Shown here piece by piece: positions 4,969 through 57,500 of a stretch of 64,000 nt of DNA. The position numbers and the translations under genes were made by a program. How positions within the stretch are numbered: the first letter of the stretch is position 1; each line of letters starts with the position of its first letter. The stretch covers positions 269,609 through 333,608 of the forward strand of contig CAVXUP010000009.1 of NCBI GenBank assembly GCA_963765005.1, read 5' to 3'. The notes under the pieces were generated by a model. It was given only the letters and a program-made list of their open reading frames with translations. It did no database searches and had not been told where the DNA came from. Origin of the DNA: an uncultured Bacteroidales bacterium (GTDB taxonomy: Bacteria; Bacteroidota; Bacteroidia; Bacteroidales; VadinHA17).

Positions 4969-5052
4969 CACAGATTTACACAGAGTTTAAACAGAGTAAC
5001 ACTGTTGAATACTCTGTGTAACTCGGTCTTAACTCTGTGTAACTCTGTGTTA
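4969..5052. repeat. Inverted and tandem decamer repeats (ACACAGAGTT / AACTCTGTGT)
   Basis: ttacacagagtt at about 4977 is the reverse complement of aactctgtgtaa. The latter occurs in tandem at 5031-5050, with a degenerate copy at 5011-5021. Located just 3' of the kinase gene. Confidence 0.9.
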
Positions 5053-5264
5053 AAATATTTTTGGGATTGATTATTCAAAGTAAGTTAATTTCTGTGCTTA
5101 CTTTTTAATTCCTTTTTAATCTGCCTTTAATTTCCGCTTAATTGTAATTCCATAAATTAGCCAGCCGTACCAGTAAGATAGCCAGGTCTGTAATTTCACC
5201 TGTTATTTGTTACTGGCAGCAGGATAAAAGATTTATGCTTTTGAATTTAAACAACATATAATAT

Positions 5265-6950
5265 ATGTTTTATAAAATCATCAGAAGTTGCTCTCTCGGA
5301 TTAAGCACCGCATTAATTCCATTGCTTTTAATTTCAGGCTGCCAGTCGAACAGCAAAGAGGCAGGTGGAAAGAAGAGTGCCTCTTCACTCCCTGCAGCAG
5401 ACGATAACTATTTCCAGGAAATTGGCATTGGAGCAGGTATTGATTTTGTTCATTCAATAGGATCAGAGCATCTCACAAATATTATTGAGTCAAGCGGAGG
5501 GGGAACCGCCATGCTCGACTTTGACAAGGATGGCTTTATGGACCTGTTTGTTACCAGTGGAACCTGGATAGAAGGATTCAGCTCAGGGGAAAAACCATCC
5601 AGCCTGCCAGGCAACAGGTTATACAGGAATCTGCGTAACGGGACTTTCGCTGATGTTACCAAAGAGGCCAGAATAGATGAAATTGCTTACAGCATGGGAG
5701 TAACGGTGGGAGATTTTAATAATGATGGTTACCCCGATGTTTATGTCACTAATTACGGACCTAATATTCTTTACAAAAACAACGGCAACGGCACATTTTC
5801 TGATGTTACTAAAAAGGCCGGCGTAGGTGGTGGAAAAGAGTGCAGCGCGGGCTCCGTATGGCTCGATTTTGATAATGACGGATACCTTGATCTTTACGTC
5901 GGTAATTATCTTACCTACGATCCGAATTATAAATACTATTATGCTCCTGACGGCTTTCCCGGTCCTATGGCATACGAAATGGAAGCTGACTGGCTTTTTC
6001 ACAACAAGGGAGACGGAACTTTTGAAGAGGTCTCAGAATCAATGGGAATCAGCGATATCGATGGAAGGGCGATGGGTGTTGGTGCCGCTGACTACGATTC
6101 AGACGGATTCGTAGACATTTTCGTTGCAAATGATCACTCTCTTAATTATATGTGGCATAATGATGCCGGGAAAAAGTTCACAAACACCGGAATAATGTCG
6201 GGGACAGCTTTCAGTCAGGCTGGAGAGGCTACTGTGAGCATGTCAGTTGACTTTTCAGATTATAATTCAGACGGACTTCTTGATATGTTCCTTTCAGATG
6301 ACACTTACTGCTCCTTATATGAAAACAAAGGCAATGGAGTATTCAGTGACATATCAAACCAGTCAGGCATTGCGACAGCTGCTGCTCAGTTTGTTGGCTG
6401 GACAAGCTCTTTCCTCGATTATGACAATGATGGGGATGCTGATCTATTTAAGACAAATGGAGCATTGAAGCATTTGTACGGACATGAAGATCAGCTTTTT
6501 GAAAACCAGGGCAATGGAAAATTCATTGATAAATCAAATGGCCTGGGTAGTTATTTTAATGAAGAATATGTTGGCAGAGGAGCAGCTCTGGGTGATTATG
6601 ACAATGACGGCGATATTGACATCTATATTGCGAACCTTCACAACCGGGGCATGTTCCTGAGGAACAATAAGGGCAATGAGAATAACTGGATTATACTTAA
6701 TCTGGAGGGAACCATCAGCAACAGGGATGCTATTGGCTCAAGGGTGAAGATTACATCAGGCGGAAAAATGCAGACAAGCCAGAAGAAGAGCACTACAGGC
6801 TATTTATCCCAGAACGACAGCAGGCTCCATTTTGGTCTCGGGAAAAACACAACAGTTGAAAAAATAGAAATAATCTGGCCATCAGGCAGAGAACAAATAC
6901 TCGAAAATGTGACAGCCAATCAGATACTTAACATAACAGAACCAAAGTAG
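5265..6950 (+). CDS. CRTAC1-like lipoprotein: FG-GAP/VCBS repeats plus a C-terminal ASPIC/UnbV domain
   Basis: Lipobox LLLISGCQS. Repeated Ca-binding-like units: DFDKDGFMDLFV, DFNNDGYPDVYV, DFDNDGYLDLYV, DYDSDGFVDIFV, DYNSDGLLDMFL, DYDNDGDADLF, DYDNDGDIDIYI. ASPIC/UnbV-like tail NNWIILNLEGTISNRDAIGSRVKITSGG...GYLSQNDSRLHFGLG. Confidence 0.85.
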   Translation: MFYKIIRSCSLGLSTALIPLLLISGCQSNSKEAGGKKSASSLPAADDNYFQEIGIGAGIDFVHSIGSEHLTNIIESSGGGTAMLDFDKDGFMDLFVTSGTWIEGFSSGEKPSSLPGNRLYRNLRNGTFADVTKEARIDEIAYSMGVTVGDFNNDGYPDVYVTNYGPNILYKNNGNGTFSDVTKKAGVGGGKECSAGSVWLDFDNDGYLDLYVGNYLTYDPNYKYYYAPDGFPGPMAYEMEADWLFHNKGDGTFEEVSESMGISDIDGRAMGVGAADYDSDGFVDIFVANDHSLNYMWHNDAGKKFTNTGIMSGTAFSQAGEATVSMSVDFSDYNSDGLLDMFLSDDTYCSLYENKGNGVFSDISNQSGIATAAAQFVGWTSSFLDYDNDGDADLFKTNGALKHLYGHEDQLFENQGNGKFIDKSNGLGSYFNEEYVGRGAALGDYDNDGDIDIYIANLHNRGMFLRNNKGNENNWIILNLEGTISNRDAIGSRVKITSGGKMQTSQKKSTTGYLSQNDSRLHFGLGKNTTVEKIEIIWPSGREQILENVTANQILNITEPK

Positions 6951-6965
6951 TATTGAACGAAGCAG

Positions 6966-14462: not shown

Positions 14463-15584
14463 ATGATTTTTCTGAACCTGCTAATTCCTGCCTGCATTCT
14501 GCTGGGCAGTATGAATCGCACCGATTGCACTGTACTGATTCAGAAGGAATCCCTATATCTCAACGGCAAAACCAGGATAGGTTTATTAATCGACAATAAA
14601 AGTTCTCTTGCAGCAAAGCATGCCGCAGAGATGGCAATCAGTGAGGCCAACAATAAGGCAGGTGCAACAGGCATGAAGTTTGAGCTTGTGGTCCGCTCTA
14701 TGGAAGGCCCCTGGGGTACAGGATCAAAGCAGACAGTAAACCTGATTTTTGATGAGAATGTTATTGCAATAGCGGGTTCTCATGATGGCCGCAATGCCCA
14801 CCTTGCTGAGCAGGTTTGTGCAAAATCGGGGGTTACCCTTATTTCTGCCAGGGCCAGCGACCCCACCCTTTCGCAGGCCTTTGTCCCCTGGTATTTCAGC
14901 TGCGTCCCAAACGACGACCAGCAGGCTTCAGTCTTATTTGAAGAAATTACTCTCATGGCAAAAGAGAGTGAAGTACTGCTGATATCAGAGAACTCATATG
15001 ATGCGAAACAGGCCTCAAAAAGTTATATCAGAAAAAATAAAAGCAAGGGATTGAAGGAGCCCGAAGTGTTTTCATACAACGACTATGACAATGATCTTTC
15101 GGGATTAGCAGCCTCTATAAAAAGAACAGGAAAGAAATGCATTGTAATCTTTGGTAAACCTCCTTCAGCTATAAAGCTCCTGAAGGAGATCCGAAAAATA
15201 AAGCCCGAAATAATCATGTTTGCATCACTTTCGATAATGGACGAGAACAAACTACCGGTTAATGAGCTTTACCAGTTCGAAGATCTTTATATTGTTTCTC
15301 CCGGCCTGATCAATTCTCCTAAATGGACTGAATTCAGCAAGGAGTATCAGAGACTGTACGGATATGCACCAGGAGCCATAGCTTCATTCTCCTACGATGC
15401 AATGAATGTAATTATTGAAGCTATAAATGAGACCGGACCAGACCAGGAATTGATGCAAAACACAATTGCGAAAAGGAGATTTAACGGAGTAACCGGACCT
15501 ATAGAATTTGATGAACATGGAAACAGGAAATGGCCATTTGGAATGATTATCATAAAAAACGGGATTCCAACTCCTGTCAGGTGA
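14463..15584 (+). CDS. Second LivK/Peripla_BP_6-type binding protein (orphan)
   Basis: TRIGLLIDNKSSLAAKHAAEMAISEANNKAGATGMKFELVV..., IASFSYDAMNVIIEAI, FNGVTGPIEFDEHGNR. Confidence 0.8.
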   Translation: MIFLNLLIPACILLGSMNRTDCTVLIQKESLYLNGKTRIGLLIDNKSSLAAKHAAEMAISEANNKAGATGMKFELVVRSMEGPWGTGSKQTVNLIFDENVIAIAGSHDGRNAHLAEQVCAKSGVTLISARASDPTLSQAFVPWYFSCVPNDDQQASVLFEEITLMAKESEVLLISENSYDAKQASKSYIRKNKSKGLKEPEVFSYNDYDNDLSGLAASIKRTGKKCIVIFGKPPSAIKLLKEIRKIKPEIIMFASLSIMDENKLPVNELYQFEDLYIVSPGLINSPKWTEFSKEYQRLYGYAPGAIASFSYDAMNVIIEAINETGPDQELMQNTIAKRRFNGVTGPIEFDEHGNRKWPFGMIIIKNGIPTPVR

Positions 15585-15626
15585 TAATGAGGTCAGTTTA
15601 TGCATATATTTCATAATTTTGAGAGC

Positions 15627-18600
15627 ATGAAAGATTTATTAAAAATACTGGTCGCACTGACCTTCATTCTAAGTCTTGCAGGATGCAGGAACAGGGCTGA
15701 TAACGGAGGAAGCAAATCAACTGACCTGATATCAGTCAAAACACTGGGACTTGCTTACCTTGAGGAATTTAAACATGAAGAAGCCGAAAAAGAGTTCCTG
15801 AAATTTATAAAGCTGGCTCCTGAAGATAAATTCGGATACGCCAACCTGGGACTGGTATACCTCAGGCTTGCCAGGTATAAGGAAGCAGAAGAACAGCTGT
15901 TCAAGGCAATAAAAATAGCACCCGAAGATCCGGATATCAGGCTTATTCTGGCAACGGTATACAGGATGAACAATGAGAGTGATAAGGCAATCTCTGTACT
16001 CTCAGAAGCCCTGAAATCTTCTCCTGATCATGCTAAAATGCTCTATGATCTGTCGGAGTTGTATTTAGCATCACCGAACCAGGAATCTGATATAAAAAGG
16101 GAAGAGTGTCTTAAAAGACTCGCAGAAAAAGCCCCTGGAAACCTTGTACCCCTTCTTAGTCTTACAGAGATCTTTATTAAAAAGGGATTGTATGACGAAG
16201 CTGTGGCAGAACTTGAGATCATAAAGAAACAATTCCCTGAATTTCCAAAGGAGGCTAACGAATATTATGAGAAGACACTTTCACTATTGAGAAAGGGAGA
16301 TAAGGACAATGCTCTTATCAGCTACACCATTTTCAACAACTACCTGAAGGTTACAAATCCTTACCAGGCAGGCATTATTGAACTTAAAGGCCCTGGCGGA
16401 GCGCTTATTGGATTTCCGGTAATAACATTTGCTCCGCAGACATCAACCCGGATGGCACAGAATGAATCTCTTCTCGATATCCTGGTCTTCACTGATGCCA
16501 CTGTCTCTTCCGGACTCTCAGTTATTCCCTCAGATAGTACAGGAGATAAAAACGGGCAAAGCAATTCATTCACTGCTCTCAATGATTATGACGGTGATGG
16601 TGATACAGACATTTATTCCGGAAGTTACGATAAGAGCACTTCAACATATAAACATTACCTTCTGAATAATGAAATGGGCCGGTTCAGGGAGATCTCGGCC
16701 GATGCCGGAATTAACATGACCGGTGTTGAAAATGGCGCATCTTTTGCTGATTTTGACAATGATGGTTTTCCTGATCTGCTTATACTGCGATCTGATGGAA
16801 ATAAACTTTATAAAAACACGGGAAAAGGGAGTTTTGAAGATGTTACAAAGAGCTCCCGTATGCCTGAAAAATCTACTGGCAAAAAGGCCCTCTTTTTTGA
16901 CCCCGATCATGACGGAGATCTTGATCTCCTCGAGACAGGATCATCAAAGATTCTCGTGATGAGGAATAATGCAGATGGAACGTTCCTTGAGAACTCCGGA
17001 GCAATGGGGCTGGCAGGTGAAAACGGACCGGCAGGTGATGCGGCATTCGGCGATTTTGATGAGGATGGGGACATCGACCTGATAACTGCAGGTGAAAAGG
17101 GAGGCATAACTCTTTATTCAAACCAGCGTCAGGGCATTTTCAAAAACATTACCGAAACCAGCGGGCTCAGCAGCGTTGCCGGCTCAACTTCCATATCGGT
17201 CGGGGACTATAACAACGACGGGTACCTCGATCTTTTTGTAACTCCTGTTAAAGGCGGTGACTATAAGCTTTACAGGAACCTGCGAAACGGAAGCTTTGAA
17301 GCTGAAACCGGAACAGAGGATATGTTCAGTGCCCTCAGATCTCTTAATGCTTTTGATGCAGCCTTTATTGATTTTAACAACGACGGTTTTCTTGATCTTG
17401 CTGTGGCAGGTGAACAGCTGGAAAATACCGGAAGGGGTCTCTTTCTGTACTGCAATGATGGAAAAGGGAATTATTCAGATGTATCCCGTCTCCTTCCGGA
17501 AGAGATAGGATCTGCCAGGCAGCTTAATCTGTTCGACTATAATGATGATGGCGACATCGATCTTTTATTAACAAAAAGCGACGGAGGTGTGTGCCTGCTG
17601 AGAAATGACGGAGGCAATGAAAACCATTATATCACAATGAAACTTGTAGGCCTCAGGGCCGGAAGTGCAAAAAACAACCATTTCGGGATCGGGGCAAAAG
17701 TGGAAATGCGGGCCGGTGAACTCTATCAGACCCTGGTTGTAAATGATCCGAATATTCATTTCGGAATTGGATCACGTGCATATGCTGATATTATAAGAAT
17801 AACCTGGACAAACGGGGTGCCACAAAACATTTTCCTTCCGGGTTCAGGTCAGAGGCTAATAGAAGCCCAGACTCTCAAAGGATCATGCCCTTTTCTATAT
17901 GCCTGGAATGGGGAGGAATTTCAATTCTCAAAGGATATTATGTGGAGAAGTGCATTGGGCATGCCACTCGGGATTATGGGAGGCACAACTGCATACGCCT
18001 TTGCAGATGCATCGGACGACTACATTAAAATTCCCGGCGAATCACTGAAAGAAAAAAATGGTAAAATTCCTTTGCAGATAACTTCAGAATTATGGGAAAC
18101 AATTTACACCGATAAAATCGAACTTGTAGCTGTTGATCATCCTGAAACAGTCGAAGTTTTTGTTCCGGAACAATTCTCTCCCCCACCCTTCCCCGGACTG
18201 AAAATCACTGCCATCGCAGGTAAAAAAATACCCGTATCAGCTTTTGACGGGTACGGGAATGACCAGCTTAAAACCCTGTCCGAAAAGGACGACAGATATG
18301 TTGCAGGATTCAGACCCGATAAATACCAGGGTGTGACTGAAATGAATGAGCTCATAATTGATCCGGGGAAGTCAGGAAGAGATGGAAAGCTGCTGATGTT
18401 CATGAACGGCTGGATCTTCCCGACAGACGCCAGTATAAACTATGCCATCTCTCAATCTTCTGCTCTCAGTGTTGTTCCGCCAATCATTGAGGTACGCGAC
18501 GGAAAAGGCAACTGGGTAACAGTAATTGACAACCTTGGTTTTCCTATGGGAAAAGACAAGACAGTAATTGCCGATCTTACCGGTAAATTTCTTTCCGATG

Positions 18601-20774: not shown

Positions 20775-20806
20775 AGTTTGGAGTTTGGAGTTTGGAGTTT
20801 GGAGTT
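20775..20806. repeat. Heptamer tandem array (AGTTTGG x4.5)
   Basis: agtttggagtttggagtttggagtttggagtt begins at the first nt after the stop codon (20772-20774). Confidence 0.95.
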
Positions 20807-26565: not shown

Positions 26566-26578
26566 GACACCCCCTCAT

Positions 26579-32091: not shown

Positions 32092-32163
32092 TTAGGTTAG
32101 GTTAGAAAGTATAGGTTAAAGTCAAAAGTCAAAAGTCAAAAGTCAAAAGTATCAAAAGATCAA
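32092..32163. repeat. Heptamer arrays (AGGTTAG degenerate; GTCAAAA x4)
   Basis: ttaggttaggttagaaagtataggttaaa, then gtcaaaagtcaaaagtcaaaagtcaaaagtatcaaaag. A related aaggttagaaggttagaa lies at 31962-31979. Confidence 0.95.
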
Positions 32164-33154: not shown

Positions 33155-33266
33155 GTCACCGTCCGCCAGCCGGCGGACGGGTTCCTCGCAATGACGGTGA
33201 CTGTAAGTATCTGATTCCATTACGCCATTACGCCTTTACGCCATTACGCCTTTATGCCGTTGTGCC
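33155..33266. repeat. Nested GC hairpins followed by an octamer array (CCATTACG x6, degenerate)
   Basis: ccgtccgcc-agcc-ggcggacgg (33159-33180). gtcaccgtc (33155-63) is complementary to gacggtgac (33193-201). Then ccattacgccattacgcctttacgccattacgcctttatgccgttgtgcc (33217-33266). Confidence 0.9.
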
Positions 33267-33357
33267 TGAATTCTTCTGTGAAAAAATTAACACCAATCCA
33301 TTGCAGTTTCAAATGATTTCATATTTTTGCATAAAATGCCATAGACAAGTATCATTT

Positions 33358-33760: not shown

Positions 33761-33821
33761 TTTTTTTATTTTTAATTGAGATAAACTTATATCATTTAAC
33801 ATTAACAAAAAAGGAGGTCCT

Positions 33822-36596: not shown

Positions 36597-36697
36597 GAAG
36601 GCGGTAAATGCGTAAAGGCGGTAAATGCTGTAAAGGCGGTAAAAGGAGCCGCGGTGTTAATTGCCTTATAAAGCCCTTAAAGCCTTTAAAGCTTTTT
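36597..36697. repeat. Degenerate tandem repeats (GGCGGTAAA-type arm, then CCTTTAAAG-type arm)
   Basis: gaaggcggtaaatgcgtaaaggcggtaaatgctgtaaaggcggtaaaagg ... ccttataaagcccttaaagcctttaaagc. Confidence 0.9.
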
Positions 36698-37977: not shown

Positions 37978-38070
37978 GAATTTGAAAATTTGAAAATTTG
38001 AAAATTTGAAAATGGCTTAAAAATTTTTAAGCTTTGAGTCGTGAGTCGTGAGTCGATTGCCATGAGTCAA
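37978..38070. repeat. Octamer array (TTTGAAAA x4.5), an 18-bp AT palindrome, and a heptamer array (GAGTCGT x3)
   Basis: gaatttgaaaatttgaaaatttgaaaatttgaaaat (37978-38013). gcttaaaaatttttaagc (38015-38032). tttgagtcgtgagtcgtgagtcg...atgagtcaaaa. Confidence 0.95.
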
Positions 38071-40739: not shown

Positions 40740-40850
40740 ACTTTAATCGTTTTTAAGTTAATTTTTTTTGCAAAGGTAATACTAAGTTTGAGACTACATA
40801 TTCATAGTTCAACAACTGAGTAACACATAACCTGGAGAATTGTTTAGAAG

Positions 40851-41024
40851 GTGGCGCAACGGCGCAACGGCTCAGAGGCGCAATGGCTAATGGCCAAATT
40901 GTTCCGCTAAGCGAAGTTGCAAACTTCGCCGAGCATCATTAATTGCATAGCTGCGCCGTTGTGCCGTTATGCCGCTACGCCGCTTTGCCGTTGTGCCGTT
41001 GTGCCATTGCGCCGTTGCGCCATT
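40851..41024. repeat. Inverted arms of octamer tandem repeats (GGCGCAAC-type vs GTTGCGCC/GTTGTGCC-type) around a central hairpin
   Basis: Left arm: gtggcgcaacggcgcaacggctcagaggcgcaatggctaatggcc. Centre: gcgaagtt-gca-aacttcgc. Right arm: tgcgccgttgtgccgttatgccgctacgccgctttgccgttgtgccgttgtgccattgcgccgttgcgccatt. Confidence 0.95.
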
Positions 41025-41059
41025 CTTCCTATATTTGTTACCACTTAACCTCACACATT

Positions 41060-41659: not shown

Positions 41660-41746
41660 GCAAAAGGTGCAGGTTGCAGGGTACAGGGTACAGGGTGCGG
41701 GGTATGCATTTATAGTTCTCACCACGCAACTCGCAACTCGTACCCC
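41660..41746. repeat. Heptamer arrays (GGTRCAG x6, then CTCGCAA-type). Contains a canonical G-quadruplex motif.
   Basis: gcaaaaggtgcaggttgcagggtacagggtacagggtgcggggtatgc ... caccacgcaactcgcaactcgtacccc. G3N4G3N4G3N3G4 at 41679-41702. Confidence 0.95.
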
Positions 41747-42766: not shown

Positions 42767-42872
42767 TTGTCTTGCGGTCGTGCGGTCGTGTTGTATTACA
42801 ATCATGAAGTCGGCTGCAAGACCTCAGGACTGCAGGACCGCACGACCGCAGGACCGCAGGACCGCAAGACAA
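42767..42872. repeat. Inverted heptamer-repeat arms (TGCGGTC / GACCGCA) that exactly fill the gap between convergent genes
   Basis: ttgtcttgcggtcgtgcggtcgtg (42767-42790) and gcaagacctcaggactgcaggaccgcacgaccgcaggaccgcaggaccgcaagacaa (42816-42872). The outermost 13 nt, ttgtcttgcggtc / gaccgcaagacaa, are perfectly complementary. Confidence 0.95.
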
Positions 42873-43667
42873 TTAAACATCATTCTCCCCTTTTACATAT
42901 CCAAAGTTGGCAAGTATTCCACCGTCGACATAAAGGATATGTCCGTTTACGAAATTGCTTGCTTTTGATGCAAGGAAGAGGGCAGCATTGGCAACATCTT
43001 CCGGTTCACCCCATCTGCCTGCAGGTGTACGGGTCATAACAAGGTCATTAAAAGGGTGACCATTCTCACGTATAGGTGCTGTCTGCGAGGTAGCTATATA
43101 ACCCGGACCAATTCCATTGATCTGAATATTATATTTTGCCCATTCGCATGTCATGCTTTGTGTAAGCAGTTTAAGCCCTCCTTTTGCAGAAGCATAGGCT
43201 GAAACGGTATTCCTTCCATAGATGCTCATCATTGAGCACATATTAATGATCTTGCCGCCTCTTTTTCCGATCATTCCGGGTGCAACACGTTTAGATATTA
43301 TAAGCGGAGCTACAAGATCGACATCGATTACCTGTTTATAATCGGATATAGCCATGTCGAGTATTGGGATCCTTTTAATTATTCCGGCATTATTGACAAG
43401 GATATCGACTGCACCAACACTTTTTTCAATCATAGTTATGCCTTTATCCACATCTTTCTCATCTGTCACATTGAATCTGAGTGTAAAGACATCAAGACCC
43501 TCTTTTTTATAACTCTCTTTGCAGCTAAGCAGCTTGTCCTCATCCAGATCGTTTACACACACTCTGGCTCCAGCCTTGCCAAGAAGCAGTCCCACAGCCA
43601 ATCCTATTCCATGAGTGCCGCCGGTTACAAGAGCCACTTTTCCGCTTAAATCAAATAATTCTTTCAT
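42873..43667 (-). CDS. SDR oxidoreductase, gluconate 5-dehydrogenase / KduD-type (2-dehydro-3-deoxy-D-gluconate 5-dehydrogenase candidate)
   Basis: GKVALVTGGTHGIGLAV, NNAG, and the S-x12-Y-x3-K triad (YASAKGGLK). Adjacent to kduI. Confidence 0.75.
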   Translation of the reverse strand: MKELFDLSGKVALVTGGTHGIGLAVGLLLGKAGARVCVNDLDEDKLLSCKESYKKEGLDVFTLRFNVTDEKDVDKGITMIEKSVGAVDILVNNAGIIKRIPILDMAISDYKQVIDVDLVAPLIISKRVAPGMIGKRGGKIINMCSMMSIYGRNTVSAYASAKGGLKLLTQSMTCEWAKYNIQINGIGPGYIATSQTAPIRENGHPFNDLVMTRTPAGRWGEPEDVANAALFLASKASNFVNGHILYVDGGILANFGYVKGENDV

Positions 43668-43726: not shown

Positions 43727-43830
43727 GTTGCAGGGTGCGGGGTGAAGATATTGCCACAGACTTCTATACTTAAACACGAAACCCGATCCGCCAGCCACCC
43801 GACGAAACACGAAACCCGAAACCCGAAACC
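43727..43830. repeat. G-rich heptamer arm (GGTGCGG) and C-rich heptamer arm (CCCGAAA)
   Basis: gttgcagggtgcggggtg ... cacgaaacccgatccgccagccacccgacgaaacacgaaacccgaaacccgaaacc. Confidence 0.95.
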
Positions 43831-44709: not shown

Positions 44710-44790
44710 GGTGCGGGGTGCGGGGTGCGGGGTGCGGATTATTAAACTTCACCTCGCAACCCGAAACCCGAAACCCGAAACTTGAAACCC
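44710..44790. repeat. GGTGCGG x4 arm and CCCGAAA x3-4 arm
   Basis: ggtgcggggtgcggggtgcggggtgcgg ... cacctcgcaacccgaaacccgaaacccgaaacttgaaaccc. It ends at the stop codon of the GH105 gene. Confidence 0.95.
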
Positions 44791-45950
44791 TAAAGAATCC
44801 CCTTATCAATCAGCCTGGTAATCTCCGATCCTGCCATTAGGAAGCCTCCAACACCATAAACCTCTGTCATTTCGCGGGTGACAGCCTTGGGATCAGCTCC
44901 GATTGGCTGGATAAACCCTACTTTGCCATCGGGCCATACGGAAGCCACCATCGATTTCCAGCCTTTTACAACAGCAGGAAGATATGTCTCTTTGTCGAGA
45001 TATCCGTTTCCAATACCCCATGCCAGACCGAAAACAAAGAAAGCTGTTGCACTCATCTCGGGATTAGGATAGCTTGCAGGATCAAGAAGGCTGGCATGCC
45101 AGTATCCGTCGGCCGACTGGAGTGAAACCAGTTTTGCGGCCATTTCTTTGTATATTGTTACAAAATAATCCTTGTTCTCATATTTCGATGGAAGCTCCCT
45201 GATTATTATTGGCAGACCGGCAAAGACCCATCCATTGCCCCTGCCCCAGAAAACCTTCTCCCCATTTGCCTCTTTCCTTGTGAAATAATTCGAATCCCTG
45301 AAATAGAGATCTTCTTCTTTATCGTAAAGATAATCAGTAGTAACCTTGTATTCACTGTACATGAAATCCAGGTACTTCTTCTTCCCGGTCACATTTGCCA
45401 TTTTAGCCCATACAGTGGGTCCCATGAAAAGAGCATCGCACCACGACCACCGCTGTGTTGACCAATACTCCTTTGTATTGACAAACTTCAGGTCGCCTTT
45501 CGCCGGATCTTTCAACATCTGGTCGAGATAGGCCCTCATGGGTTTTATCATTTTCTTGTCGTTATACTTCCTGTATAATTCGATATAGGTTTGTCCTACA
45601 CAATAATCATCCGCATGGTATCTTCGAAGCGGGTTATCATGTTTATAATAATCCCATGACAAATTCTCACCTATTTCAACAAGCCATTTGTAATAAGAGT
45701 CGTCGCCGGCAATTGAGGCCCAATCAACCATACCTGCATAAAGAGCCGCGCTGGTCCAGTCTGCAGGGTTATGATTAAGGGGACTTTTAACCTGCCAGTC
45801 TGCTACTGCCTTAAGCACGGTTTTGATATCCTTTTTATTAAGATCCGAACTAAAAGGAGCACCTGATAACCCCTGGGAATAACCGGACAGTGTGAAAGGC
45901 ATTAACAGGACAAGCAAACTGATTTTCCAACAGGTCTTGGTATTCTTCAT
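44790..45950 (-). CDS. GH105/GH88-family unsaturated rhamnogalacturonyl/glucuronyl hydrolase
   Basis: Signal peptide. RWSWCDALFMGPTVWAKM, GRGNGWVFAGL, ATAFFVFGLAWGI motifs typical of the YteR/YesR-like (alpha/alpha)6 hydrolases. Confidence 0.85.
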   Translation of the reverse strand: MKNTKTCWKISLLVLLMPFTLSGYSQGLSGAPFSSDLNKKDIKTVLKAVADWQVKSPLNHNPADWTSAALYAGMVDWASIAGDDSYYKWLVEIGENLSWDYYKHDNPLRRYHADDYCVGQTYIELYRKYNDKKMIKPMRAYLDQMLKDPAKGDLKFVNTKEYWSTQRWSWCDALFMGPTVWAKMANVTGKKKYLDFMYSEYKVTTDYLYDKEEDLYFRDSNYFTRKEANGEKVFWGRGNGWVFAGLPIIIRELPSKYENKDYFVTIYKEMAAKLVSLQSADGYWHASLLDPASYPNPEMSATAFFVFGLAWGIGNGYLDKETYLPAVVKGWKSMVASVWPDGKVGFIQPIGADPKAVTREMTEVYGVGGFLMAGSEITRLIDKGIL

Positions 45951-47534: not shown

Positions 47535-48377
47535 ATGAATGATCTGAATCTTAAAGGCAAAGTTGCCGTTATAACAGGGGGAGCAGGGATCATCTGCTCA
47601 ACAATGGCAAAATCTCTTGCCGCCCAGGGTGTAAAAACCGTTATACTTGATCTGAACAAGGAGGCCGCTCAGGAAGTTGCCAGAGAGATTGAGAAGGAAT
47701 TTAAAACCCAATCAATAGGAGTCTCCGCCAGCGTCCTTGACAAGGCGTCACTTGAGGCTGCAAGATCTGAGATAAATGAGATCCTCGGTCCAGTTGATAT
47801 CCTTGTAAATGGAGCAGGTGGCAATTCACCTGCTGCCACAACAAAGGTTGAAAAGATGGAGGGTACCGAAGATGAAAATCCGGCTGACACCTTTTTCGGA
47901 CTTCAGATTGAAGGCTTTGACAAGGTCTTTGATCTTAATTTCAAGGGAACCTTGCTGCCTACAATGGTTTTTGCATCTGATATGGTTATGAAGAAATCAG
48001 GGGTGATAATCAACATCTCATCGATGAACTCTTACAGGCCTCTCACAAAAATTGCAGCCTATTCTGCAGCCAAAGCTGCTGTTAATAATTTCACACAATG
48101 GCTGGCTGTGCACTTCTCCAAAACAGGGATAAGGGTAAATGCAATTGCCCCTGGGTTTCTCCTTACAAATCAGAACAGATTCCTCCTTATTGATGAGAAA
48201 ACCGGAGGGCTGACTCCAAGAGGTAAAAAAATCATAAACGGAACCCCGATGGAAAGGTATTGTCTCCCGGAAGAGTTAACAGGAACACTCATTTACCTTG
48301 TCTCCGACCTTTCGAAATTTGTCACAGGAATTGTAATACCTGTCGACGGGGGGTTTAGTGCATATAGTGGCGTATAG
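47535..48377 (+). CDS. SDR oxidoreductase, YjmF/UxuB-like (fructuronate/mannonate oxidoreductase candidate)
   Basis: GKVAVITGGAGIICSTMAKSLA, NGAGGN, and S...YSAAKAAV (Y-x3-K). Located directly after uxaC. Confidence 0.7.
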   Translation: MNDLNLKGKVAVITGGAGIICSTMAKSLAAQGVKTVILDLNKEAAQEVAREIEKEFKTQSIGVSASVLDKASLEAARSEINEILGPVDILVNGAGGNSPAATTKVEKMEGTEDENPADTFFGLQIEGFDKVFDLNFKGTLLPTMVFASDMVMKKSGVIINISSMNSYRPLTKIAAYSAAKAAVNNFTQWLAVHFSKTGIRVNAIAPGFLLTNQNRFLLIDEKTGGLTPRGKKIINGTPMERYCLPEELTGTLIYLVSDLSKFVTGIVIPVDGGFSAYSGV

Positions 48378-48505
48378 GAGTAGCGGCGTAGCGGCGTAAT
48401 GGCGTAATGGCGTAATGGCTTAGTGACGTAATGGAATATTGGTAAAAGTATTATAAGTAAGGATTCTGAATAAAAACACGAAACCCGAAACCCGAAACCC
48501 GAAAC
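48378..48505. repeat. Octamer array (GGCGTAAT/GGCGTAGC), then a heptamer array (CCCGAAA x3.5)
   Basis: gagtagcggcgtagcggcgtaatggcgtaatggcgtaatggcttagtgacgtaatgg ... cacgaaacccgaaacccgaaacccgaaac. Confidence 0.95.
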
Positions 48506-49819: not shown

Positions 49820-49890
49820 TTCGGTCTTCGGTCTTGACTTTTGTCTTTTCACTTTTATCTTTTTACTTTTGTACTTTTATCTTTTGTCTT
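49820..49890. repeat. Graded heptamer array (GGTCTTC decaying to CTTTTNT)
   Basis: ttcggtcttcggtcttgacttttgtcttttcacttttatctttttacttttgtacttttatcttttgtctt. Confidence 0.95.
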
Positions 49891-49900: not shown

Positions 49901-50782
49901 ATGAACCCACACGATCAATTATTAAACCTGAAACCCGAAAAGGAGTTTTTCATCGGAATTGATTCCGATGGTTGTGCATTTGATACTATGGAGATAAAGC
50001 AGAAAGAATGTTTCTGCCCAAACTTCATAAAATATTTCAAAATGCAGCCTGTATCAAAATATGCCCGCGAAACATGGGAATTTGTAAACCTCTATTCAAC
50101 AAACAGGGGCTGCAATAGATTTCTTGCTGTAAATGAAACACTTAAGCTATTGTCTACCCGTCCGGAAATCAAAGCGCGCAACTTTTCGGTCCCTGATCCT
50201 GCTTCTCTTATTGAATGGACAAAGAAGGAGACTAAACTGGGAAATCCTACTCTTAAAACCTATGCTGCAGAGATAAAAGATCCCTTCATCTCCCAGACCC
50301 TCGAATGGTCGCTCAGGGTAAATGAGGATATCGAAAAGATGGTATTCGGGATAACTCCTTTCCCGTTTGTAAGAGAGTGTCTTGAGAAAATGAAGCCGAA
50401 AGCAGATGCAATGGTCGTTTCGCAAACTCCTTATGATGCTCTGAAAAGAGAGTGGGAAGAGAATAAAATTGATCATCATCTGAGAATGATAGCCGGTCAG
50501 GAACATGGTACAAAAACCGAGCACCTTAAATATGCAGCGAAAGGAAAATATCCCGATGAGAAAATTCTTATGATTGGAGATGCAAACGGCGACCTGAAAG
50601 CCGCAAAATCAAACGGAGTGCTCTTCTTCCCTATAAATCCGGGTAAAGAAGAGGCATCGTGGGAAAGATTATATAAAGAAGGTATGGACAGGTTCTTTGC
50701 CGGCACATACAAGGGTGCTTATGAGGATGAGCTGATAAGGGAATTTGAGACCTATCTGCCGGAGCATCCACACTGGAGATAG
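49901..50782 (+). CDS. HAD-superfamily hydrolase (phosphatase-like)
   Basis: Motif I FFIGIDSDGCAFDT (DxD); motif IV MIGDANGDLKAA. The 20 upstream codons in the tracked ORF translate the repeat array. Confidence 0.75.
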   Translation: MNPHDQLLNLKPEKEFFIGIDSDGCAFDTMEIKQKECFCPNFIKYFKMQPVSKYARETWEFVNLYSTNRGCNRFLAVNETLKLLSTRPEIKARNFSVPDPASLIEWTKKETKLGNPTLKTYAAEIKDPFISQTLEWSLRVNEDIEKMVFGITPFPFVRECLEKMKPKADAMVVSQTPYDALKREWEENKIDHHLRMIAGQEHGTKTEHLKYAAKGKYPDEKILMIGDANGDLKAAKSNGVLFFPINPGKEEASWERLYKEGMDRFFAGTYKGAYEDELIREFETYLPEHPHWR

Positions 50783-50856
50783 CAGGGTGCAGGGTGCAAG
50801 GTGCAAGGTGCAGGGTGCAGGGTGCAAGGTGCAAGGTGTAAGGGAAGAAAGGAAGG
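50783..50856. repeat. Heptamer array (GGTGCAG/GGTGCAA x9)
   Basis: cagggtgcagggtgcaaggtgcaaggtgcagggtgcagggtgcaaggtgcaaggtgtaagggaagaaaggaagg begins 1 nt after the stop. Confidence 0.95.
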
Positions 50857-52176: not shown

Positions 52177-53166
52177 ATGATAAACTGGGGTATAATAGGC
52201 TGCGGCAATGTCACCGAGGTAAAGAGCGGTCCTGCATTTAACAAGATCAGGGATTCCAGACTTATTGCCGTAATGCGAAGAGACCGGCAGATGGCTGAGG
52301 ATTATGCCAGCAGGCATAATGTTCCAAAAGTTTACTCCGATGCATCAGACCTTATAAATGACAAGGATATTGACGCGGTTTATATCGCGACACCTCCGGG
52401 AAGTCATGCCGGATATGCAATTGAAGTTATCAAAGCACGAAAACCTGTTTATATCGAGAAACCGATGGCTGCCAGTTATGCTGAATGCCAGATGATAAAC
52501 CTTGCGGCGGAGAAGCATAATGTGCCGGTCTTCGTTGCCTACTACAGAAGAGCTCTTCCCGGATTCCTGAAGGTAAAAGAGCTTATCGAGGAAGGTAAGA
52601 TCGGGAAGGTGCGCTTTGTTCAGATCGAGCTGTTCAAACCAGCTTCAATTGAAGAAAAATCCGGAAATCCTTCGTGGCGTGTTAATCCCGAAATTGCAGG
52701 AGGGGGACATTTTTTCGATCTGGCATCTCATCAACTGGATTATCTTGATTATCTTTTCGGACCGATTGTAAAAACAGCATCGGTGGTACTTAACCAGGCC
52801 GGACTTTATGAAGCAGAAGACATGGTTGCTGCCAGCTTTATATTTGAAAATGGTGTAGCAGGATCAGGGATATGGTGCTTCAGCGTTTCGCCTGAATTGC
52901 GAAGAGACACAATCGAGATTATCGGGGAAAAGGGAGCAATCAGTTTTTCCACATTCAGTTTTGAATCAATAAAGGTTACAACTGAAACAGGGATACATGA
53001 ATATGAGAACGAACGGCCTGAGCACGTGCAATACTACCTGATTGAAAAAATCGTTCAGGAACTTGAAGGCAAAGGGAAATCACCGAGTACCGGGATAACT
53101 GCTGCAAGAACAAGCAGGATAATGGATGAAATTGTGAAAGAATATTACAGGGGAAAAAGACAGTAG
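52177..53166 (+). CDS. Gfo/Idh/MocA-family NAD(P)-dependent oxidoreductase
   Basis: INWGIIGCGNV Rossmann start, AVYIATPPGSHAGYA, VYIEKPMA. Confidence 0.9.
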   Translation: MINWGIIGCGNVTEVKSGPAFNKIRDSRLIAVMRRDRQMAEDYASRHNVPKVYSDASDLINDKDIDAVYIATPPGSHAGYAIEVIKARKPVYIEKPMAASYAECQMINLAAEKHNVPVFVAYYRRALPGFLKVKELIEEGKIGKVRFVQIELFKPASIEEKSGNPSWRVNPEIAGGGHFFDLASHQLDYLDYLFGPIVKTASVVLNQAGLYEAEDMVAASFIFENGVAGSGIWCFSVSPELRRDTIEIIGEKGAISFSTFSFESIKVTTETGIHEYENERPEHVQYYLIEKIVQELEGKGKSPSTGITAARTSRIMDEIVKEYYRGKRQ

Positions 53167-53168
53167 AC

Positions 53169-53240
53169 TGAAGACCGAAGACCGAAGACCGAAGACAGAA
53201 GTCAGAAGTAAGAAGTAGGAAGTAAAAAGTAAGAAGACAA
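53169..53240. repeat. Graded heptamer array (GAAGACC x3 decaying via GAAGACA, GAAGTCA, GAAGTAA...)
   Basis: tgaagaccgaagaccgaagaccgaagacagaagtcagaagtaagaagtaggaagtaaaaagtaagaagacaaaa. The unit is the reverse complement of the unit at 49820. Confidence 0.95.
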
Positions 53241-53264
53241 AATAGAAATCATAAATTATTAATT

Positions 53265-56269: not shown

Positions 56270-56275
56270 TTTCCT

Positions 56276-56340: not shown

Positions 56341-56348
56341 AATTCAAA

Positions 56349-57404
56349 ATGCCTCCCAAAAAAGCAAGGATAAAAGATATTGCCAGGCTTGCCGGTGTTT
56401 CAATAGGTACTGTTGACAGGGTGCTTCATAAAAGAGGTGAAGTTGCAGAAAAGACACTTGCCAGGGTCCAGAAGATTCTTAAGGAGACCAACTATTCCCC
56501 AAATGTAATGGCCCAGGTGCTTAAATCAAAAAGAAGTTTTCACCTGGTTTCCATACTGCCCAAGCCGACAGAGGATAACTCCTTCTGGAGCAAGCATCCT
56601 GAAGGAATGAGGCGAGCCATTTCAGAACTTGATCCATTTCCGGTTAGTCTCACCGAGATTACTTTTGATATGCAGAGTGAAAAAGACTTTCAGAAAAAAG
56701 CCTCTTCCCTTTTCGGTCTGAAACCTGATGGTGTAATCCTTGCTCCCATTTTTAAATCCGAATCAATTGTTTTTGCAGAGAGGCTGGCGAAGGAGAACAT
56801 TCCCCTTGTCTTTATTGACGGATTCATAGAAAACACTGAATTTCTTGCTTATATAGGTGAAAATATTTTTTCAAGCGGCAGGGTGGCCGGACAGCTTATC
56901 GACCTGGTAACACCTGAAACCAGGGATATCCTGATTGTTAACATAGCAAGAAACATCAGAAATGTTCATCACCTCGAAACCCGTGCCATGGGTTTCCAGA
57001 GCTTTTTCAACGACAATCACAACAGCAAGGGAAAACGTATAATGATTATGATACCTGATCCGTCAGTTCAGAGCATTAAAAAAGCAATGGACAATGCACT
57101 GAAGGAAAACCCTGAAATAGGATCAGTTTTCCTGACAGGATCAAGGTCGTATCTTATTGCAAATTACCTTCAGGAAAAAGGAATTGATACAATTAACCTT
57201 GTTGGTTATGATCTTCTCGACGAAAACATCGCGCCGCTGAGGACCGGAATCACCAGGTTCCTCCTAAACCAGCGTCCGGATGAGCAAACCTATAAAGCTG
57301 TAAAGAAGCTCTTTGAGTATCTGTCGATGCATAAGGTACCTGATAAAATTGAATATCTTCCGGTAGATATCGTAACTTCGGAAAATGTGGATTTCTATTT
57401 ATAG
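56349..57404 (+). CDS. LacI-family transcriptional regulator
   Basis: N-terminal HTH ARIKDIARLAGVSIGTVDRVLHKRGEVAEKTLARVQKILKETNYSPN, then a periplasmic-binding-fold sugar sensor domain. Confidence 0.9.
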   Translation: MPPKKARIKDIARLAGVSIGTVDRVLHKRGEVAEKTLARVQKILKETNYSPNVMAQVLKSKRSFHLVSILPKPTEDNSFWSKHPEGMRRAISELDPFPVSLTEITFDMQSEKDFQKKASSLFGLKPDGVILAPIFKSESIVFAERLAKENIPLVFIDGFIENTEFLAYIGENIFSSGRVAGQLIDLVTPETRDILIVNIARNIRNVHHLETRAMGFQSFFNDNHNSKGKRIMIMIPDPSVQSIKKAMDNALKENPEIGSVFLTGSRSYLIANYLQEKGIDTINLVGYDLLDENIAPLRTGITRFLLNQRPDEQTYKAVKKLFEYLSMHKVPDKIEYLPVDIVTSENVDFYL

Positions 57405-57405
57405 T

Positions 57406-57500
57406 CCAATTACCCAAAACATCACCAATGACCCCCAATTACCAATGACCAATTACCAATCACCAATCACCAATTACCATTACCAATCATAAATCACAAT
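57406..57500. repeat. Heptamer array (CCAATNA: TACCAAT/CACCAAT/GACCAAT, about 12 units)
   Basis: ccaattacccaaaacatcaccaatgacccccaattaccaatgaccaattaccaatcaccaatcaccaattaccattaccaatcataaatcacaat. Confidence 0.95.

Follow-up and report, generated by a model that had tools for sequence, protein, structure and literature searches.

The classical units of the cyanobacterial STRR repeats are reportedly CCCCAGT, TTGGTCA, and CAACAGT, and REP elements are said to protect upstream mRNA and to attenuate read-through. STRR hairpins are found between the co-transcribed genes hupS and hupL, where a role in transcript stability or translational coupling was proposed (PMC2670836). In 2015, Rehm et al. described the heptamer repeats GGGAATC in Xanthomonas and GGGGA(C/T)T in Nostoc, which are mostly transcribed and for which G-quadruplex (G4) formation was proposed (PMC4692102). 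MacGregor (2015) reported direct repeats of the heptamer TAACTGA in Beggiatoaceae, cyanobacteria, and five Bacteroidetes, including Flexibacter, Paludibacter (Bacteroidales), Gramella, and Aequorivita; in the last two, further heptamer repeats occur within the TAACTGA-bearing gaps (PMC4679880). An initial annotation of the DNA studied here, which knew of no such description for Bacteroidota, is corrected by this report.

Here, a 64,000-nt stretch (the window) from an uncultured Bacteroidales lineage with roughly 43% GC was analyzed. TRF (period 6 to 9, at least 3 copies) found 20 non-overlapping arrays in the window; when the window was shuffled 30 times in 200-nt blocks, no array was obtained in 29 shuffles and one array in the remaining shuffle. 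Of the array sites in the initial annotation, 17 were listed with coordinates, and clear arrays of period 7 to 8 were present at 15 of them, at the coordinates given; 4969-5052 has 10- to 11-nt units, and 31962-31979 has only 2.2 copies. Of the arrays, 73% had period 7 and 19% had period 8. The sites in the window were as follows (TRF; folds are predictions for RNA).

4969..5053, plus strand: atypical inverted repeat with 10- to 11-nt (21-nt) units, CACAGAGTTTA x2.7 and then ACTCTGTGTA x3.9, starting 35 nt past the stop of gene 3549-4934; hairpin of -36 kcal/mol, z -6.35.
20775..20806, plus strand: (AGTTTGG)4.6, 100% matches; it immediately adjoins the stop codon of the 1724-aa gene 15600-20774, and the following ATG is at 20823.
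31962-31979: weak 8-mer, in the same gap as the array at 32118.
32118..32163, minus strand: (AAAGTCA)4.7 as read on the plus strand; relative to the minus-strand neighbors, the sense sequence is (TGACTTT)n. The array sits in the middle of its gap, with the truA stop (32277) 114 nt upstream.
33217..33266, no strand assigned: (CCATTACG)5.2, preceded by a palindromic, GC-rich element (~33136-33205), in a gap whose divergent neighbors are truA (minus, start 33053) and a gene for an Rrf2-type regulator that lacks annotation (plus, start near 33355) (TRF, tblastn, and sequence).
36598..36696, plus strand: two arms, (AAGGCGGTA)5.2 from 2 nt past the stop at 36595 and then (GCCTTTAAA)3.7, with units complementary at distance ≤2; fold of -31.9 kcal/mol, z -1.6.
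37979..38055, plus strand: (AATTTGAA)4.4, the AT-rich palindrome GCTTAAAAATTTTTAAGC, and (TGAGTCG)3, in that order, from 6 nt past the stop at 37972; following start at 38084; fold z -2.96.
40853..41021, no strand assigned: the largest two-arm site, (GGCGCAAC)4.4 plus (GCCGTTGT)8.4, flanked divergently by gene 39675-40739 (minus) and a gene starting at 41060 (plus); fold of -102.9 kcal/mol, z -9.65.
41666..41740, plus strand: (GGTGCAG)5.4 from 6 nt past the stop at 41659, followed by (CGCAACT)2.3 as a short C-rich arm; fold z -2.59; contains the window's only canonical G3 quadruplex motif, 41679-41702 (G4 scan).
42769..42870, no strand assigned: two arms occupying an entire convergent gap, (GTCGTGCG)2.8, 2 nt past the stop at 42766, and (GCAGGACC)6.9, ending 2 nt short of the stop codon of gene 42873-43667 (minus); fold z -6.2 (plus strand) and -7.7 (minus strand).
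43727..43830, minus strand: read in sense orientation (minus), (GGTTTCG)4 from 3 nt past the kduI stop; farther from this stop, 43727-43745 form a C-rich stretch, CACCCCGCACCCTGCAAC (TRF and sequence); no significant fold (z +0.64).
44710..44794, minus strand: read in sense orientation (minus), (TCGGGTT)5.3 over the stop of a GH88 gene (44790-44792), then (CCGCACC)4; fold of -33.9 kcal/mol, z -2.16.
48365..48505, plus strand: (TAGTGGCG / GGCGTAAT)8.8, from 13 nt inside an SDR gene across its stop (48375-48377), followed by a non-complementary (AAACCCG)4.6 at 48474-48505 (TRF and sequence); no fold signal (z +0.70).
49820..49890, plus strand: reverse orientation class, (TTCGGTC)2.3 plus (ACTTTTGTCTTTTA)n, pyrimidine-rich on the sense strand, ending 10 nt ahead of the start at 49901.
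50782..50856, plus strand: single arm, (GGTGCAR)8.9, its first base within the stop (50780-50782) of gene 49901-50782; following start at 50878.
53157..53242, plus strand: single arm of about 12 units, GAAGACC / GAAGACA / GAAGTAA, from 10 nt inside a GFO-family gene (stop 53164-53166); purine-only, unstructured RNA (-3 kcal/mol, z 0).
57406..57500, plus strand: about 12 (CCAATNA) units (TRF core 57435-57487), G-free on the sense strand and an exception to the G-rich rule described below, occupying the gap between a lacI-type stop (57404) and the uxaE start (57508); unstructured (-0.2 kcal/mol).

The assignment to STRR-like simple-sequence arrays of heptamers and octamers was upheld, and the arrays are best classed as hypervariable simple-sequence repeats of the STRR / long-SSR type. 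Units occur in both orientations, as had been noted (GGCGTAAT at 48385 versus CCATTACG at 33217; GGCGCAAC at 40853 versus GCCGTTGT at 40955), and CCCGAAA does recur at 43.8, 44.8, and 48.5 kb. The description of a few unit families understated the diversity, since 136 canonical units were counted among 211 arrays across relatives. The proposed link to the STRR unit TTGGTCA proved to be a chance overlap, with TGACCAA occurring once among the CCAATNA units at 57.4 kb. Spurious ORF stretches were confirmed, with TTG starts at 20778, 40943, and 49841 wrongly extended into arrays.

The arrays are real, heritable, copy-number-variable elements. Identical arrays are carried by independent assemblies (L004/L106, L058/L132, L115/L117, and L025/L118/L119), which contradicts an assembly or sequencing artifact, and more than 100 MAGs and metagenome contigs have arrays at orthologous sites. 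Some contigs (L098, L087, and L126) do break off within arrays, and the variable copy number resembles that of contingency loci. However, the neighboring genes serve housekeeping sugar-acid catabolism, respiration, and transport, and arrays are depleted in coding DNA and in promoter-bearing divergent gaps, so that artifacts or phase-variation switches have a negligible probability.

Among relatives, site occupancy was conserved and unit sequences were not. Unit similarity at distance ≤1 was 16% for the same site between genomes and 5.9% for different sites. Among strains with 97.6 to 99.7% identity in the flanking gene, the (AGGYGTG) array numbered 4, 12, at least 14, or about 19 units; orthologues of the array at 50782 have AGGCGAC and AGGYGTG units in variable copy number, and orthologous arrays were present in 64% of relatives at the site at 53157. 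Array-free orthologous gaps were shorter by about the array length and as small as 1 to 25 nt. Thus, sites are conserved while units turn over, and the arrays are dispensable at a site. Dispensability, hypervariable copy number, and unconserved units, along with the uncorrelated arm lengths described below, would be expected of functionless slippage debris in unconstrained DNA, in which strand bias would stem from a mutational asymmetry linked to transcription or repair and not from selection on RNA. In addition, array density is a graded trait across lineages (rho 0.52), as expected of a lineage-specific replication or repair property, and the part of Mrazek 2007 that is quoted in PMC4679880 ties the heptamer preference to DNA polymerase. 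We regard this reading as possible, though rather doubtful, on account of the position and strand of the arrays.

When position and strand were counted over the window and 80 syntenic loci, where the counts from relatives are inflated by the shared ancestry of orthologous arrays, arrays covered 4.7% of intergenic versus 0.037% of coding bases. Arrays lay between co-directional or convergent genes and were rare between divergent genes: 30 to 43% of co-directional gaps of 80 to 299 nt were occupied, whereas length-matched divergent gaps were nearly array-free (0/20 and 6/79), which is not expected of debris. In 85 of 157 cases (54%), the array started less than 15 nt from, or overlapped, the upstream stop, and in 16 of 157 it lay less than 15 nt from the next start. 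In some orthologs, the ORF terminates at the TGA of the first array unit. The arrays are thus intergenic, 3'-end elements; the enrichment at gene 3' ends that the initial annotation had suggested testing was strongly positive, and its remark that most arrays start close to stop codons holds for 12 of 16 window sites (≤10 nt or overlapping). The low density that it had seen at 5 to 26 kb is correct but trivial, because the genes there abut and intergenic DNA is almost absent. It had also named absence from independent assemblies and lack of positional bias as findings against the arrays; we found arrays in independent assemblies, copy-number variation among strains, and a positional bias.

The arrays also follow a strand rule. 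On the sense strand, G exceeded C in 92 of 99 stop-proximal arrays (71/77 for plus-strand genes and 21/22 for minus-strand genes). Coding DNA has a mild sense-strand purine excess as well (GC skew, +0.09), as debris would allow, but the skew of arrays (+0.28; stop-proximal arrays, +0.47) far exceeds that of neighboring non-array intergenic DNA (+0.03). The reverse orientation of the site at 49820, in the pfk-to-next-gene gap, was kept in 37 of 45 arrays in relatives. The pairing of G-rich with C-rich arms was confirmed: a partly complementary C-rich arm often lies downstream of a G-rich arm, 27 of 29 pairs open with the G-arm, and adjacent arrays were complementary (unit distance ≤2) in 43% of cases versus 14% in re-paired controls, a threefold excess. 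Kept orientation, arm order, and complementarity likewise argue against debris. Strand bias, arm order, and partial complementarity are properties of the arrays. The two arms were never perfect complements of each other, and the mismatches in two-arm hairpins on the sense strand were mostly purine-purine (16/24; pyrimidine-pyrimidine, 3/24).

In RNA folding, the strongest hairpins in the window had z scores of -6 to -10. The copy numbers of paired arms were uncorrelated (rho -0.02), array gaps were not more stable per nucleotide than array-free gaps (-0.186 versus -0.196 kcal/mol/nt), 34 of 79 stop-proximal arrays were essentially unpaired, and the orthologous hairpin 3' of gene 49901-50782 showed almost no compensatory change (RNAalifold; covariation term, +0.28).

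The Bacteroidetes -7 promoter motif, TAnnTTTG, preceded 61% of genes in divergent gaps versus 13% in array-bearing co-directional gaps (antisense control, 10%). Because array gaps mostly have no promoter motif for the next gene, most arrays would lie inside operons. Canonical hairpin-plus-U-tract terminators were not enriched (18 found versus 16.9 expected), leaving room for another element, and the arrays might then be the lineage's intrinsic (bidirectional) terminators, in which a hairpin of G- and C-arms ends transcription units without a U-tract. Placement at the 3' ends of genes and within convergent gaps, together with the very stable hairpins at 42764-42875 and 40845-41030, suits this idea, and known terminators reportedly show the same arm asymmetry (G-rich 5', C-rich 3'). 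However, efficient termination would silence downstream genes, because promoter motifs are rare and some arrays end only 5 to 25 nt ahead of the next start. In addition, many stop-proximal arrays are unpaired, arm copy numbers are uncorrelated, and relatives manage without arrays at corresponding sites. A general terminator role, as raised by the initial annotation, is thus improbable. With promoter motifs scarce and canonical terminators unenriched, the arrays look like dispensable intercistronic or 3'-UTR elements.

Regulation by G4 structures was also considered, in which four or more sense-strand G-tracts would fold as DNA or RNA G4 and modulate transcription or translation. The positional rules agree with those in PMC4692102, and canonical G3 motifs in co-directional gaps were found 28 times on the sense versus 5 times on the antisense strand, at 0.34 per kb versus 0.002 per kb in coding DNA. 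However, only 69 of 406 non-redundant arrays (17%) had GGG or CCC in the unit, and their copy number was like that of the others (median, 4.6 versus 4.7), with no peak at four; G4 is therefore not the common denominator. Moreover, the window holds a single canonical motif, and many A-rich (AAAAGAT and AAGACAA) or G-free (CCAATNA) arrays follow identical positional rules. This makes the G4 explanation quite improbable.

The arrays could instead be periodic platforms on which a protein that binds single-stranded RNA (ribosomal protein S1, cold-shock, or RRM-type) regulates adjacent cistrons, as was put forward for TAACTGA repeats (PMC4679880). Several arrays are fully unstructured (53164-53245, -3 kcal/mol; 57402-57505, -0.2 kcal/mol), at one conserved site about 10 nt separate the end of a pyrimidine-rich array from the start codon downstream of it, and unit sharing among sites within one genome is modestly raised (10.1% versus 5.9%). 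However, this excess is small, the diversity of units leaves no common motif, and most arrays adjoin stop codons rather than start codons. Thus, such platforms seem very improbable.

We assign a probability of roughly 55% to an explanation in which slippage makes the arrays, which grow from gene 3' termini, and a constraint on the transcript strand filters their persistence. Slipped-strand mispairing would generate the arrays, which would extend into intercistronic and 3'-untranslated spacers that are probably transcribed. Local origin is supported by the array at 48365, whose unit resembles and reuses the last codons and stop of the SDR gene (AGT GGC GTA TAG), by the orthologs in which the ORF terminates within the first unit, and by unit similarity, which peaks at corresponding sites of different genomes. 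A constraint sensing the transcript strand, presumably as RNA, would then decide which arrays persist: beside a stop codon, the mRNA strand is purine- and G-rich and C-poor, and C-rich arrays are mostly second arms after a partly complementary G-rich arm or lie directly before a start codon. Two-arm sites would form long stem-loops with periodic mismatches; by analogy with REP elements and STRR hairpins, these most likely shield the upstream cistron at its 3' end or attenuate read-through in part. Single-arm arrays would yield unstructured, C-poor spacer RNA, probably a poor Rho substrate. In either form, the arrays are accessory and not essential.

Several observations count against this explanation. 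A 3'-end role makes no sense for the arrays at 33217 and 40853-41021, because their gaps are divergent. The long sense-strand array at 57406-57500 is C-rich and unstructured. The stability per nucleotide, the unpaired stop-proximal arrays, the uncorrelated arm copy numbers, and the RNAalifold result also speak against it.

Compared with known systems, the arrays share most with the Rehm repeats (PMC4692102). Both have period 7, are biased to non-coding DNA between aligned ORFs, and are under-represented between divergent ORFs and in coding DNA. In both, the G-rich strand is the sense strand where the repeats overlap a stop codon or lie ≤50 bp from it, and the antisense strand where they closely precede an ORF. 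Convergent inverted pairs are frequent, the unit number varies widely among related strains at the same gene pairs, and the flanks are ordinary metabolic genes. Unlike the Rehm repeats, the Bacteroidales arrays have no genome-wide consensus unit, include period 8, seldom carry G3 or C3 tracts, show no preference for four units, have arms that are never perfect complements, and belong to an uncultured host of ~43% GC.

Cyanobacterial STRR are likewise tandem heptanucleotide units in intergenic DNA, but their families are few and genome-wide, whereas the Bacteroidales units are largely site-specific, differ from the classical STRR units, and occur in a host that is no cyanobacterium. TAACTGA repeats are also heptamer direct repeats that lie between genes and vary in copy number (PMC4679880); unlike the diverse, mostly stop-adjoining Bacteroidales arrays, they have one specific unit and mostly precede start codons by a few nucleotides, in forward orientation. 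The resemblance to REP / BIME elements would lie in an extragenic position, intercistronic or 3' within operons and often within ~15 nt of a stop codon, in imperfect stem-loops thought to guard upstream mRNA or attenuate read-through, and in the dispensability of any single site. However, REPs are a dispersed, conserved imperfect palindrome of ~35 nt mobilized by a RayT-type transposase, whereas the Bacteroidales arrays are locally generated tandem 7- to 8-nt units. Thus, the arrays belong to an already known type of element, which follows the Xanthomonas and Nostoc rules and of which heptamers had been reported before in Bacteroidetes.

Screening with Tandem Repeats Finder (TRF; period 6 to 9, at least 3 copies) detected 20 arrays in the window, against none in 29 of 30 controls shuffled in 200-nt blocks and a single array in the remaining one. 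TRF and direct reading of the sequence together revealed period-7 or period-8 arrays at nearly all of the sites listed in the initial annotation, and the arrays as such were confirmed. The site at 4969-5052 carries 10-11-nt units arranged as an inverted repeat rather than a 7-8-nt array, and the one at 31962-31979 is weak, with only 2.2 copies. The scarcity of arrays reported for 5-26 kb is genuine and at the same time trivial, since the genes there abut or overlap. No Rfam family matched the window at gathering thresholds. A repeat of a different kind, with a 59-nt unit in 4.4 copies at 91% identity and the perfect hairpin GGGGCGCAAAATTTTGCGCCCC in every unit, was seen at 26578-26835, where it fills the convergent gap between the genes at 24787-26565 (+) and 26840-27907 (-).

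A scan with glucuronate isomerase, taking one genome per species, yielded 80 syntenic loci, all from uncultured Bacteroidales or Bacteroidota MAGs of fens, lakes, soils, and digesters. The best of them reached 81% amino-acid identity, so the window's own genome lies outside this collection. Metagenomes scanned with the product of the gene at 49901-50782 gave 80 further loci at up to 92% identity, and gene order was kept across the genome and metagenome loci. An exact look-up of three window proteins, for other assemblies of the same strain, gave no match; in their place, the analysis drew on pairs of near-identical strains among the relatives. Essentially identical strains from independent assemblies (loci L004/L106, L058/L132, L115/L117, and L025/L118/L119) shared identical arrays. 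Across strains, the (AGGYGTG) array downstream of a flanking gene that is 97.6 to 99.7% identical comprised 4, 12, at least 14, and about 19 units. Several contigs terminate within arrays. The identical arrays in independent assemblies, together with the variation in copy number, exclude an assembly artefact, and slippage fits this pattern.

Period 7 predominated (298 of 406 nonredundant arrays), followed by period 8 (77/406). In the window and the 80 genome loci, arrays covered 4.7% of intergenic but 0.037% of coding bases. They occupied 30 to 43% of co-directional gaps of 80 to 299 nt and 30% of convergent gaps of 80 to 149 nt. Divergent gaps held arrays in 0 of 20 cases at 80 to 149 nt and in 6 of 79 at 150 to 299 nt. 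The proposed tie to gene 3' ends was upheld in both the window and the relatives: at 12 of 16 window sites the array started within 10 nt of a stop codon, and of the 157 arrays in co-directional gaps, 85 started less than 15 nt from the upstream stop or overlapped it, with only 16 equally close to the next start. The array at 48365 begins within the gene, its unit copying the last codons plus the stop (AGT GGC GTA TAG), and gene 49901-50782 has orthologs whose ORF closes with the TGA of the first repeat unit. Supply of stops in three frames was rejected as a role, with a sense-strand stop triplet in the units of 37 of 99 arrays and 39.5 expected from shuffled units.

The genes next to the arrays are ordinary. 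They encode glucuronate isomerase, two short-chain dehydrogenases, KduI, GH88, a phosphofructokinase-family kinase, 6-phosphogluconate dehydrogenase, an MFS transporter, a LacI regulator, tagaturonate epimerase, cytochrome oxidase subunits, and sulfur-transport proteins. An unannotated gene for an Rrf2-family transcriptional regulator (MNFSKTASYSLNILSYMAINENVPMS...), conserved in the relatives' loci L028, L039, and L007, was also noticed at 33355-33790 (+). It carries an apparent frameshift near 33590, the ORF ending in ...HHFPGRYH* with a plausible C-terminal continuation in another frame, and could be a pseudogene or reflect a sequencing error. The ORF-tool call at 33094-33597 is array-derived sequence fused to this gene. 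Directly upstream of the (CCATTACG)n array, at 33136-33205, lies a GC-rich palindromic element (GCGGATTGCTTCGTCACCGTCCGCCAGCCGGCGGACGGGTTCCTCGCAATGACGGTGAC), which gives a "PRNDG"-type peptide in spurious ORFs; a related element, GGATTGCTTCGTC...CTCGCAATGACGG, occurs in an intercistronic gap of relative L056 (about 15010-15085).

Sites were conserved and units were not. The 211 arrays comprised 136 canonical units, with no conservation of unit sequence. Occupancy at four co-directional gaps was 64%, 57%, 51%, and 36%, compared with 2 to 8% at other gaps of similar length and 8 to 16% at the divergent gaps flanking uxaC. The similarity of units fell in a gradient, as listed below, which indicates that arrays evolve mostly in place, with concerted change.

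Unit similarity between arrays (distance of 1 or less)
Same site, different genomes: 16%
Different sites, same genome: 10.1%
Different sites, different genomes: 5.9%

Relatives farther from the window genome had sparser arrays, the density going from 0.39 down to 0.06 per kb (rho 0.52). Downstream of the ortholog of gene 49901-50782, the gap of one relative (L107) is wholly different from that of two others (L111/L126) despite about 99% gene identity, with a two-arm AGGCGAC/GCCTGAT hairpin in one and an 8-nt (GAATGGGA)n array in the other, which suggests that the gap was exchanged by recombination and did not change step by step.

Two further observations concern other carriers and other repeats. 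Viral contigs were scanned for (GGTGCN G)3, and (GGGTGCN)n heptamer arrays were seen in 49 IMG/VR contigs (L161-L209; 30 to 71% GC), most with unreliable gene calls, which shows only that the GGGTGCN-type unit family is not lineage-specific. Sample 3300047539 contributed many related viral contigs, several with at least two arrays, and a low-GC viral group (L182, L195, L201) carried (GCACCCT)n followed by (TAATGGA)n. Six relatives, L016 (about 17075-17110), L025 (about 14820-14860), L026, L027, L030, and L137, have a second repeat family of REP-like hairpins of the form AATTAG-CCCCCC-TTA-GGGGGG-(A/T)T-GGGGGG-C-AAAA. These lie in GFO-family/6PGD gaps and downstream of gene 49901-50782, at heptamer-array sites and sometimes together with the arrays; none was noticed in the window array-site sequences that were read.

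Stop-proximal arrays follow a strand rule. When they were read in the sense of the upstream gene, G exceeded C in 92 of 99, and 88 of 99 were purine-rich. The G excess was found in 71 of 77 arrays for genes on one strand of the loci and in 21 of 22 for genes on the other; thus, the bias is present for both strands and tracks gene orientation. Array-bearing gaps exceeded their array-free orthologs, which were as short as 1 to 25 nt, by approximately the length of the array, so the arrays are dispensable additions. GC skew was +0.03 in the non-array intergenic DNA of the same gaps and +0.09 in coding DNA.

A conserved exception to the strand rule is the gap between the kinase gene (pfk) and gene 49901-50782, where 37 of 45 arrays have a pyrimidine-rich (ACTTTTG-like) sense strand and stop about 10 nt short of the start codon. 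In the arrays at 49834-49890 and in the orthologous gaps of four relatives (L099, L112, L027, and L082), the sequence TACTTTTG fits the Bacteroidetes -7 motif TAnnTTTG perfectly, and more TTTG copies follow at 7-nt spacing. These tracts could be promoter-like or S1-binding.

Where two arrays of equal period adjoin, their units were reverse-complementary (distance of 2 or less) in 43% of cases, against 14% of re-paired controls. The arms were never perfect complements. A correlation between the copy numbers of the two arms, tried as a test of hairpin maintenance, was not found. The G-rich arm came first and the C-rich arm second in 27 of 29 complementary pairs, an order that is identical when read from either strand. 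Of 24 mismatches between arms, 16 were purine-purine and 3 pyrimidine-pyrimidine on the sense strand. Strong predicted RNA folds were obtained at three window sites.

40845-41030: two-arm site, -102.9 kcal/mol, z -9.65
42764-42875: two-arm site, z -6.2 and -7.7
4965-5056: site of the 10-11-nt inverted repeat, z -6.35

Other window sites folded weakly or not at all, those at 53164-53245 (-3 kcal/mol) and 57402-57505 (-0.2 kcal/mol) being essentially unstructured. Among the relatives' stop-proximal arrays, at least half of the bases were paired downstream in 22 of 79, and fewer than 10% were paired in 34 of 79. Per nucleotide, array gaps were no more stable than array-free gaps. As a probe of selection at the RNA level, folding energies of the two strands were compared; sense RNA folded 3.4 kcal/mol lower than antisense RNA (p 6e-4), a confounded comparison that was left out as evidence because G-rich RNA always outfolds its C-rich complement. 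In the orthologs of the hairpin that follows gene 49901-50782, compensatory changes were found in 3 pairs only, and register shifts spoil the alignment.

The Bacteroidetes -7 motif TAnnTTTG, with divergent gaps as the positive control, served as the promoter test and replaced a sigma-70 scan, which is irrelevant for Bacteroidetes. On the right strand, the motif preceded 61% of genes in divergent gaps, compared with 13% in array-bearing co-directional gaps and 10% in the antisense control. With the motif in just 13% of array gaps, (ACTTTTG)n arrays were rejected as promoters and kept as a lead only. Certain arrays finish 5 to 25 nt ahead of the next start. The scarcity of the promoter motif in array-bearing gaps is indirect evidence of transcription, and most arrays are likely carried inside polycistronic mRNAs. 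This weighs against efficient termination and favors an element of the intercistronic or 3'-UTR type. A region scan for hairpin-plus-U-tract terminators found 18 against 16.9 expected, with only partial matches at arrays. With this lack of enrichment, the 34 of 79 unpaired arrays, and the promoter motif missing downstream, the terminator role raised in the initial annotation was not supported. Canonical G-quadruplex motifs numbered 28 on the sense strand versus 5 on the antisense strand; a GGG or CCC tract was present in 17% of units, and their copy-number distribution equaled that of other units.

In the explanation that we prefer, slippage in transcribed spacers, both intercistronic and 3', would generate hypervariable arrays, and a strand-specific constraint would filter them, leaving an mRNA strand that is G-/purine-rich and C-poor, with the G-arm ahead of the C-arm. 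The main rival to this explanation is that the arrays are neutral debris with a mutational strand bias. We infer a REP-like hairpin role for two-arm sites and a Rho-refractory spacer role for single-arm sites. A more general reading, to which we assign a probability of about 0.15, would make the heptamer arrays of Bacteroidales, Xanthomonas, and Nostoc one selected class of operon-internal insulators. The rule would then be one of composition and not of sequence: any 7-8-nt unit after a stop would be tolerated or favored if the mRNA strand is purine-/G-rich and C-poor, and C-rich arrays would occur only downstream of a pairing G-arm. Untranslated intercistronic RNA would be shielded from Rho and would form REP-like 3' stem-loops, and antisense or read-through transcripts would meet C-rich rut-like tracts. 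If true, this reading would account for a class of repeats whose role has been debated since 1990.

The region is a natural experiment, with one conserved operon region in more than 100 genomes carrying many different units at the same sites. The property shared by the arrays is therefore period plus strand composition, and neither a motif nor G-quadruplex potential, which makes the sense-versus-antisense and Rho hypotheses directly testable. In practice, arrays break metagenome assemblies and mislead MAG annotation into misplaced start codons and spurious repetitive ORFs, and they are ready VNTR markers for tracking strains of fen and lake Bacteroidales.

In heterocystous cyanobacteria, the STRR1-3 units are CCCCAGT, TTGGTCA, and CAACAGT. 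These units are absent from our unit lists, the host here belongs to Bacteroidales, and the TGACCAA at 57.4 kb, initially noted as the complement of the STRR unit TTGGTCA, is a single chance occurrence. Like cyanobacterial STRRs, the arrays are intergenic heptanucleotide tandem repeats capable of forming hairpins within operons, and the reading of them as STRR-like and 3'-end-associated was right in kind. STRR hairpins between hupS and hupL have been proposed to stabilize the transcript (PMC2670836). The closest likeness is to the GGGAATC repeats of Xanthomonas and the GGGGA(C/T)T repeats of Nostoc (Rehm et al. 2015, PMC4692102). Those repeats are noncoding, lie between aligned ORFs, and are scarce between divergent ones; they are found within 50 bp of a stop or overlapping it with the G-rich strand coding, or else shortly before an ORF, in which case the G-rich strand is noncoding. 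Convergent inverted pairs are frequent, unit number is variable, and most are transcribed (PMC4692102). Similarly, the present arrays are mainly 7 nt in period, intergenic, located in aligned or convergent gaps, and scarce in divergent ones, and they are either stop-adjacent with a G-rich sense strand or, at the pfk-to-next-gene site, start-adjacent and pyrimidine-rich. Unlike the Xanthomonas and Nostoc repeats, they show no dominant G3-4 consensus unit per genome (136 units in 211 arrays) and no preference for four units.

Intrinsic (Rho-independent) terminators differ in having, where a transcription unit ends, a GC-rich hairpin with a direct U-tract, which the arrays match in part at most. 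REP/BIME elements are likewise extragenic, intercistronic or 3', and near stop codons; they are dispersed conserved imperfect palindromes, whereas the arrays are tandem with a site-specific unit, only 10% being shared within a genome at a distance of 1 or less. Contingency-locus SSRs occupy promoters or 5' coding regions of surface or antigen genes and switch their expression; the arrays are depleted in divergent (promoter) gaps and in coding DNA, and the neighbors here are metabolic. The initial claim of novelty for Bacteroidota is not supported, as MacGregor 2015 (PMC4679880) described TAACTGA and other heptamer direct repeats in five Bacteroidetes, Paludibacter included. With the same rules in Xanthomonas and Nostoc and with heptamers reported in Bacteroidetes, the arrays thus belong to an already described kind. 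What they add is that many units obey a single rule of composition and position, and this tells against explanations that are motif-specific or rest on G-quadruplexes only.
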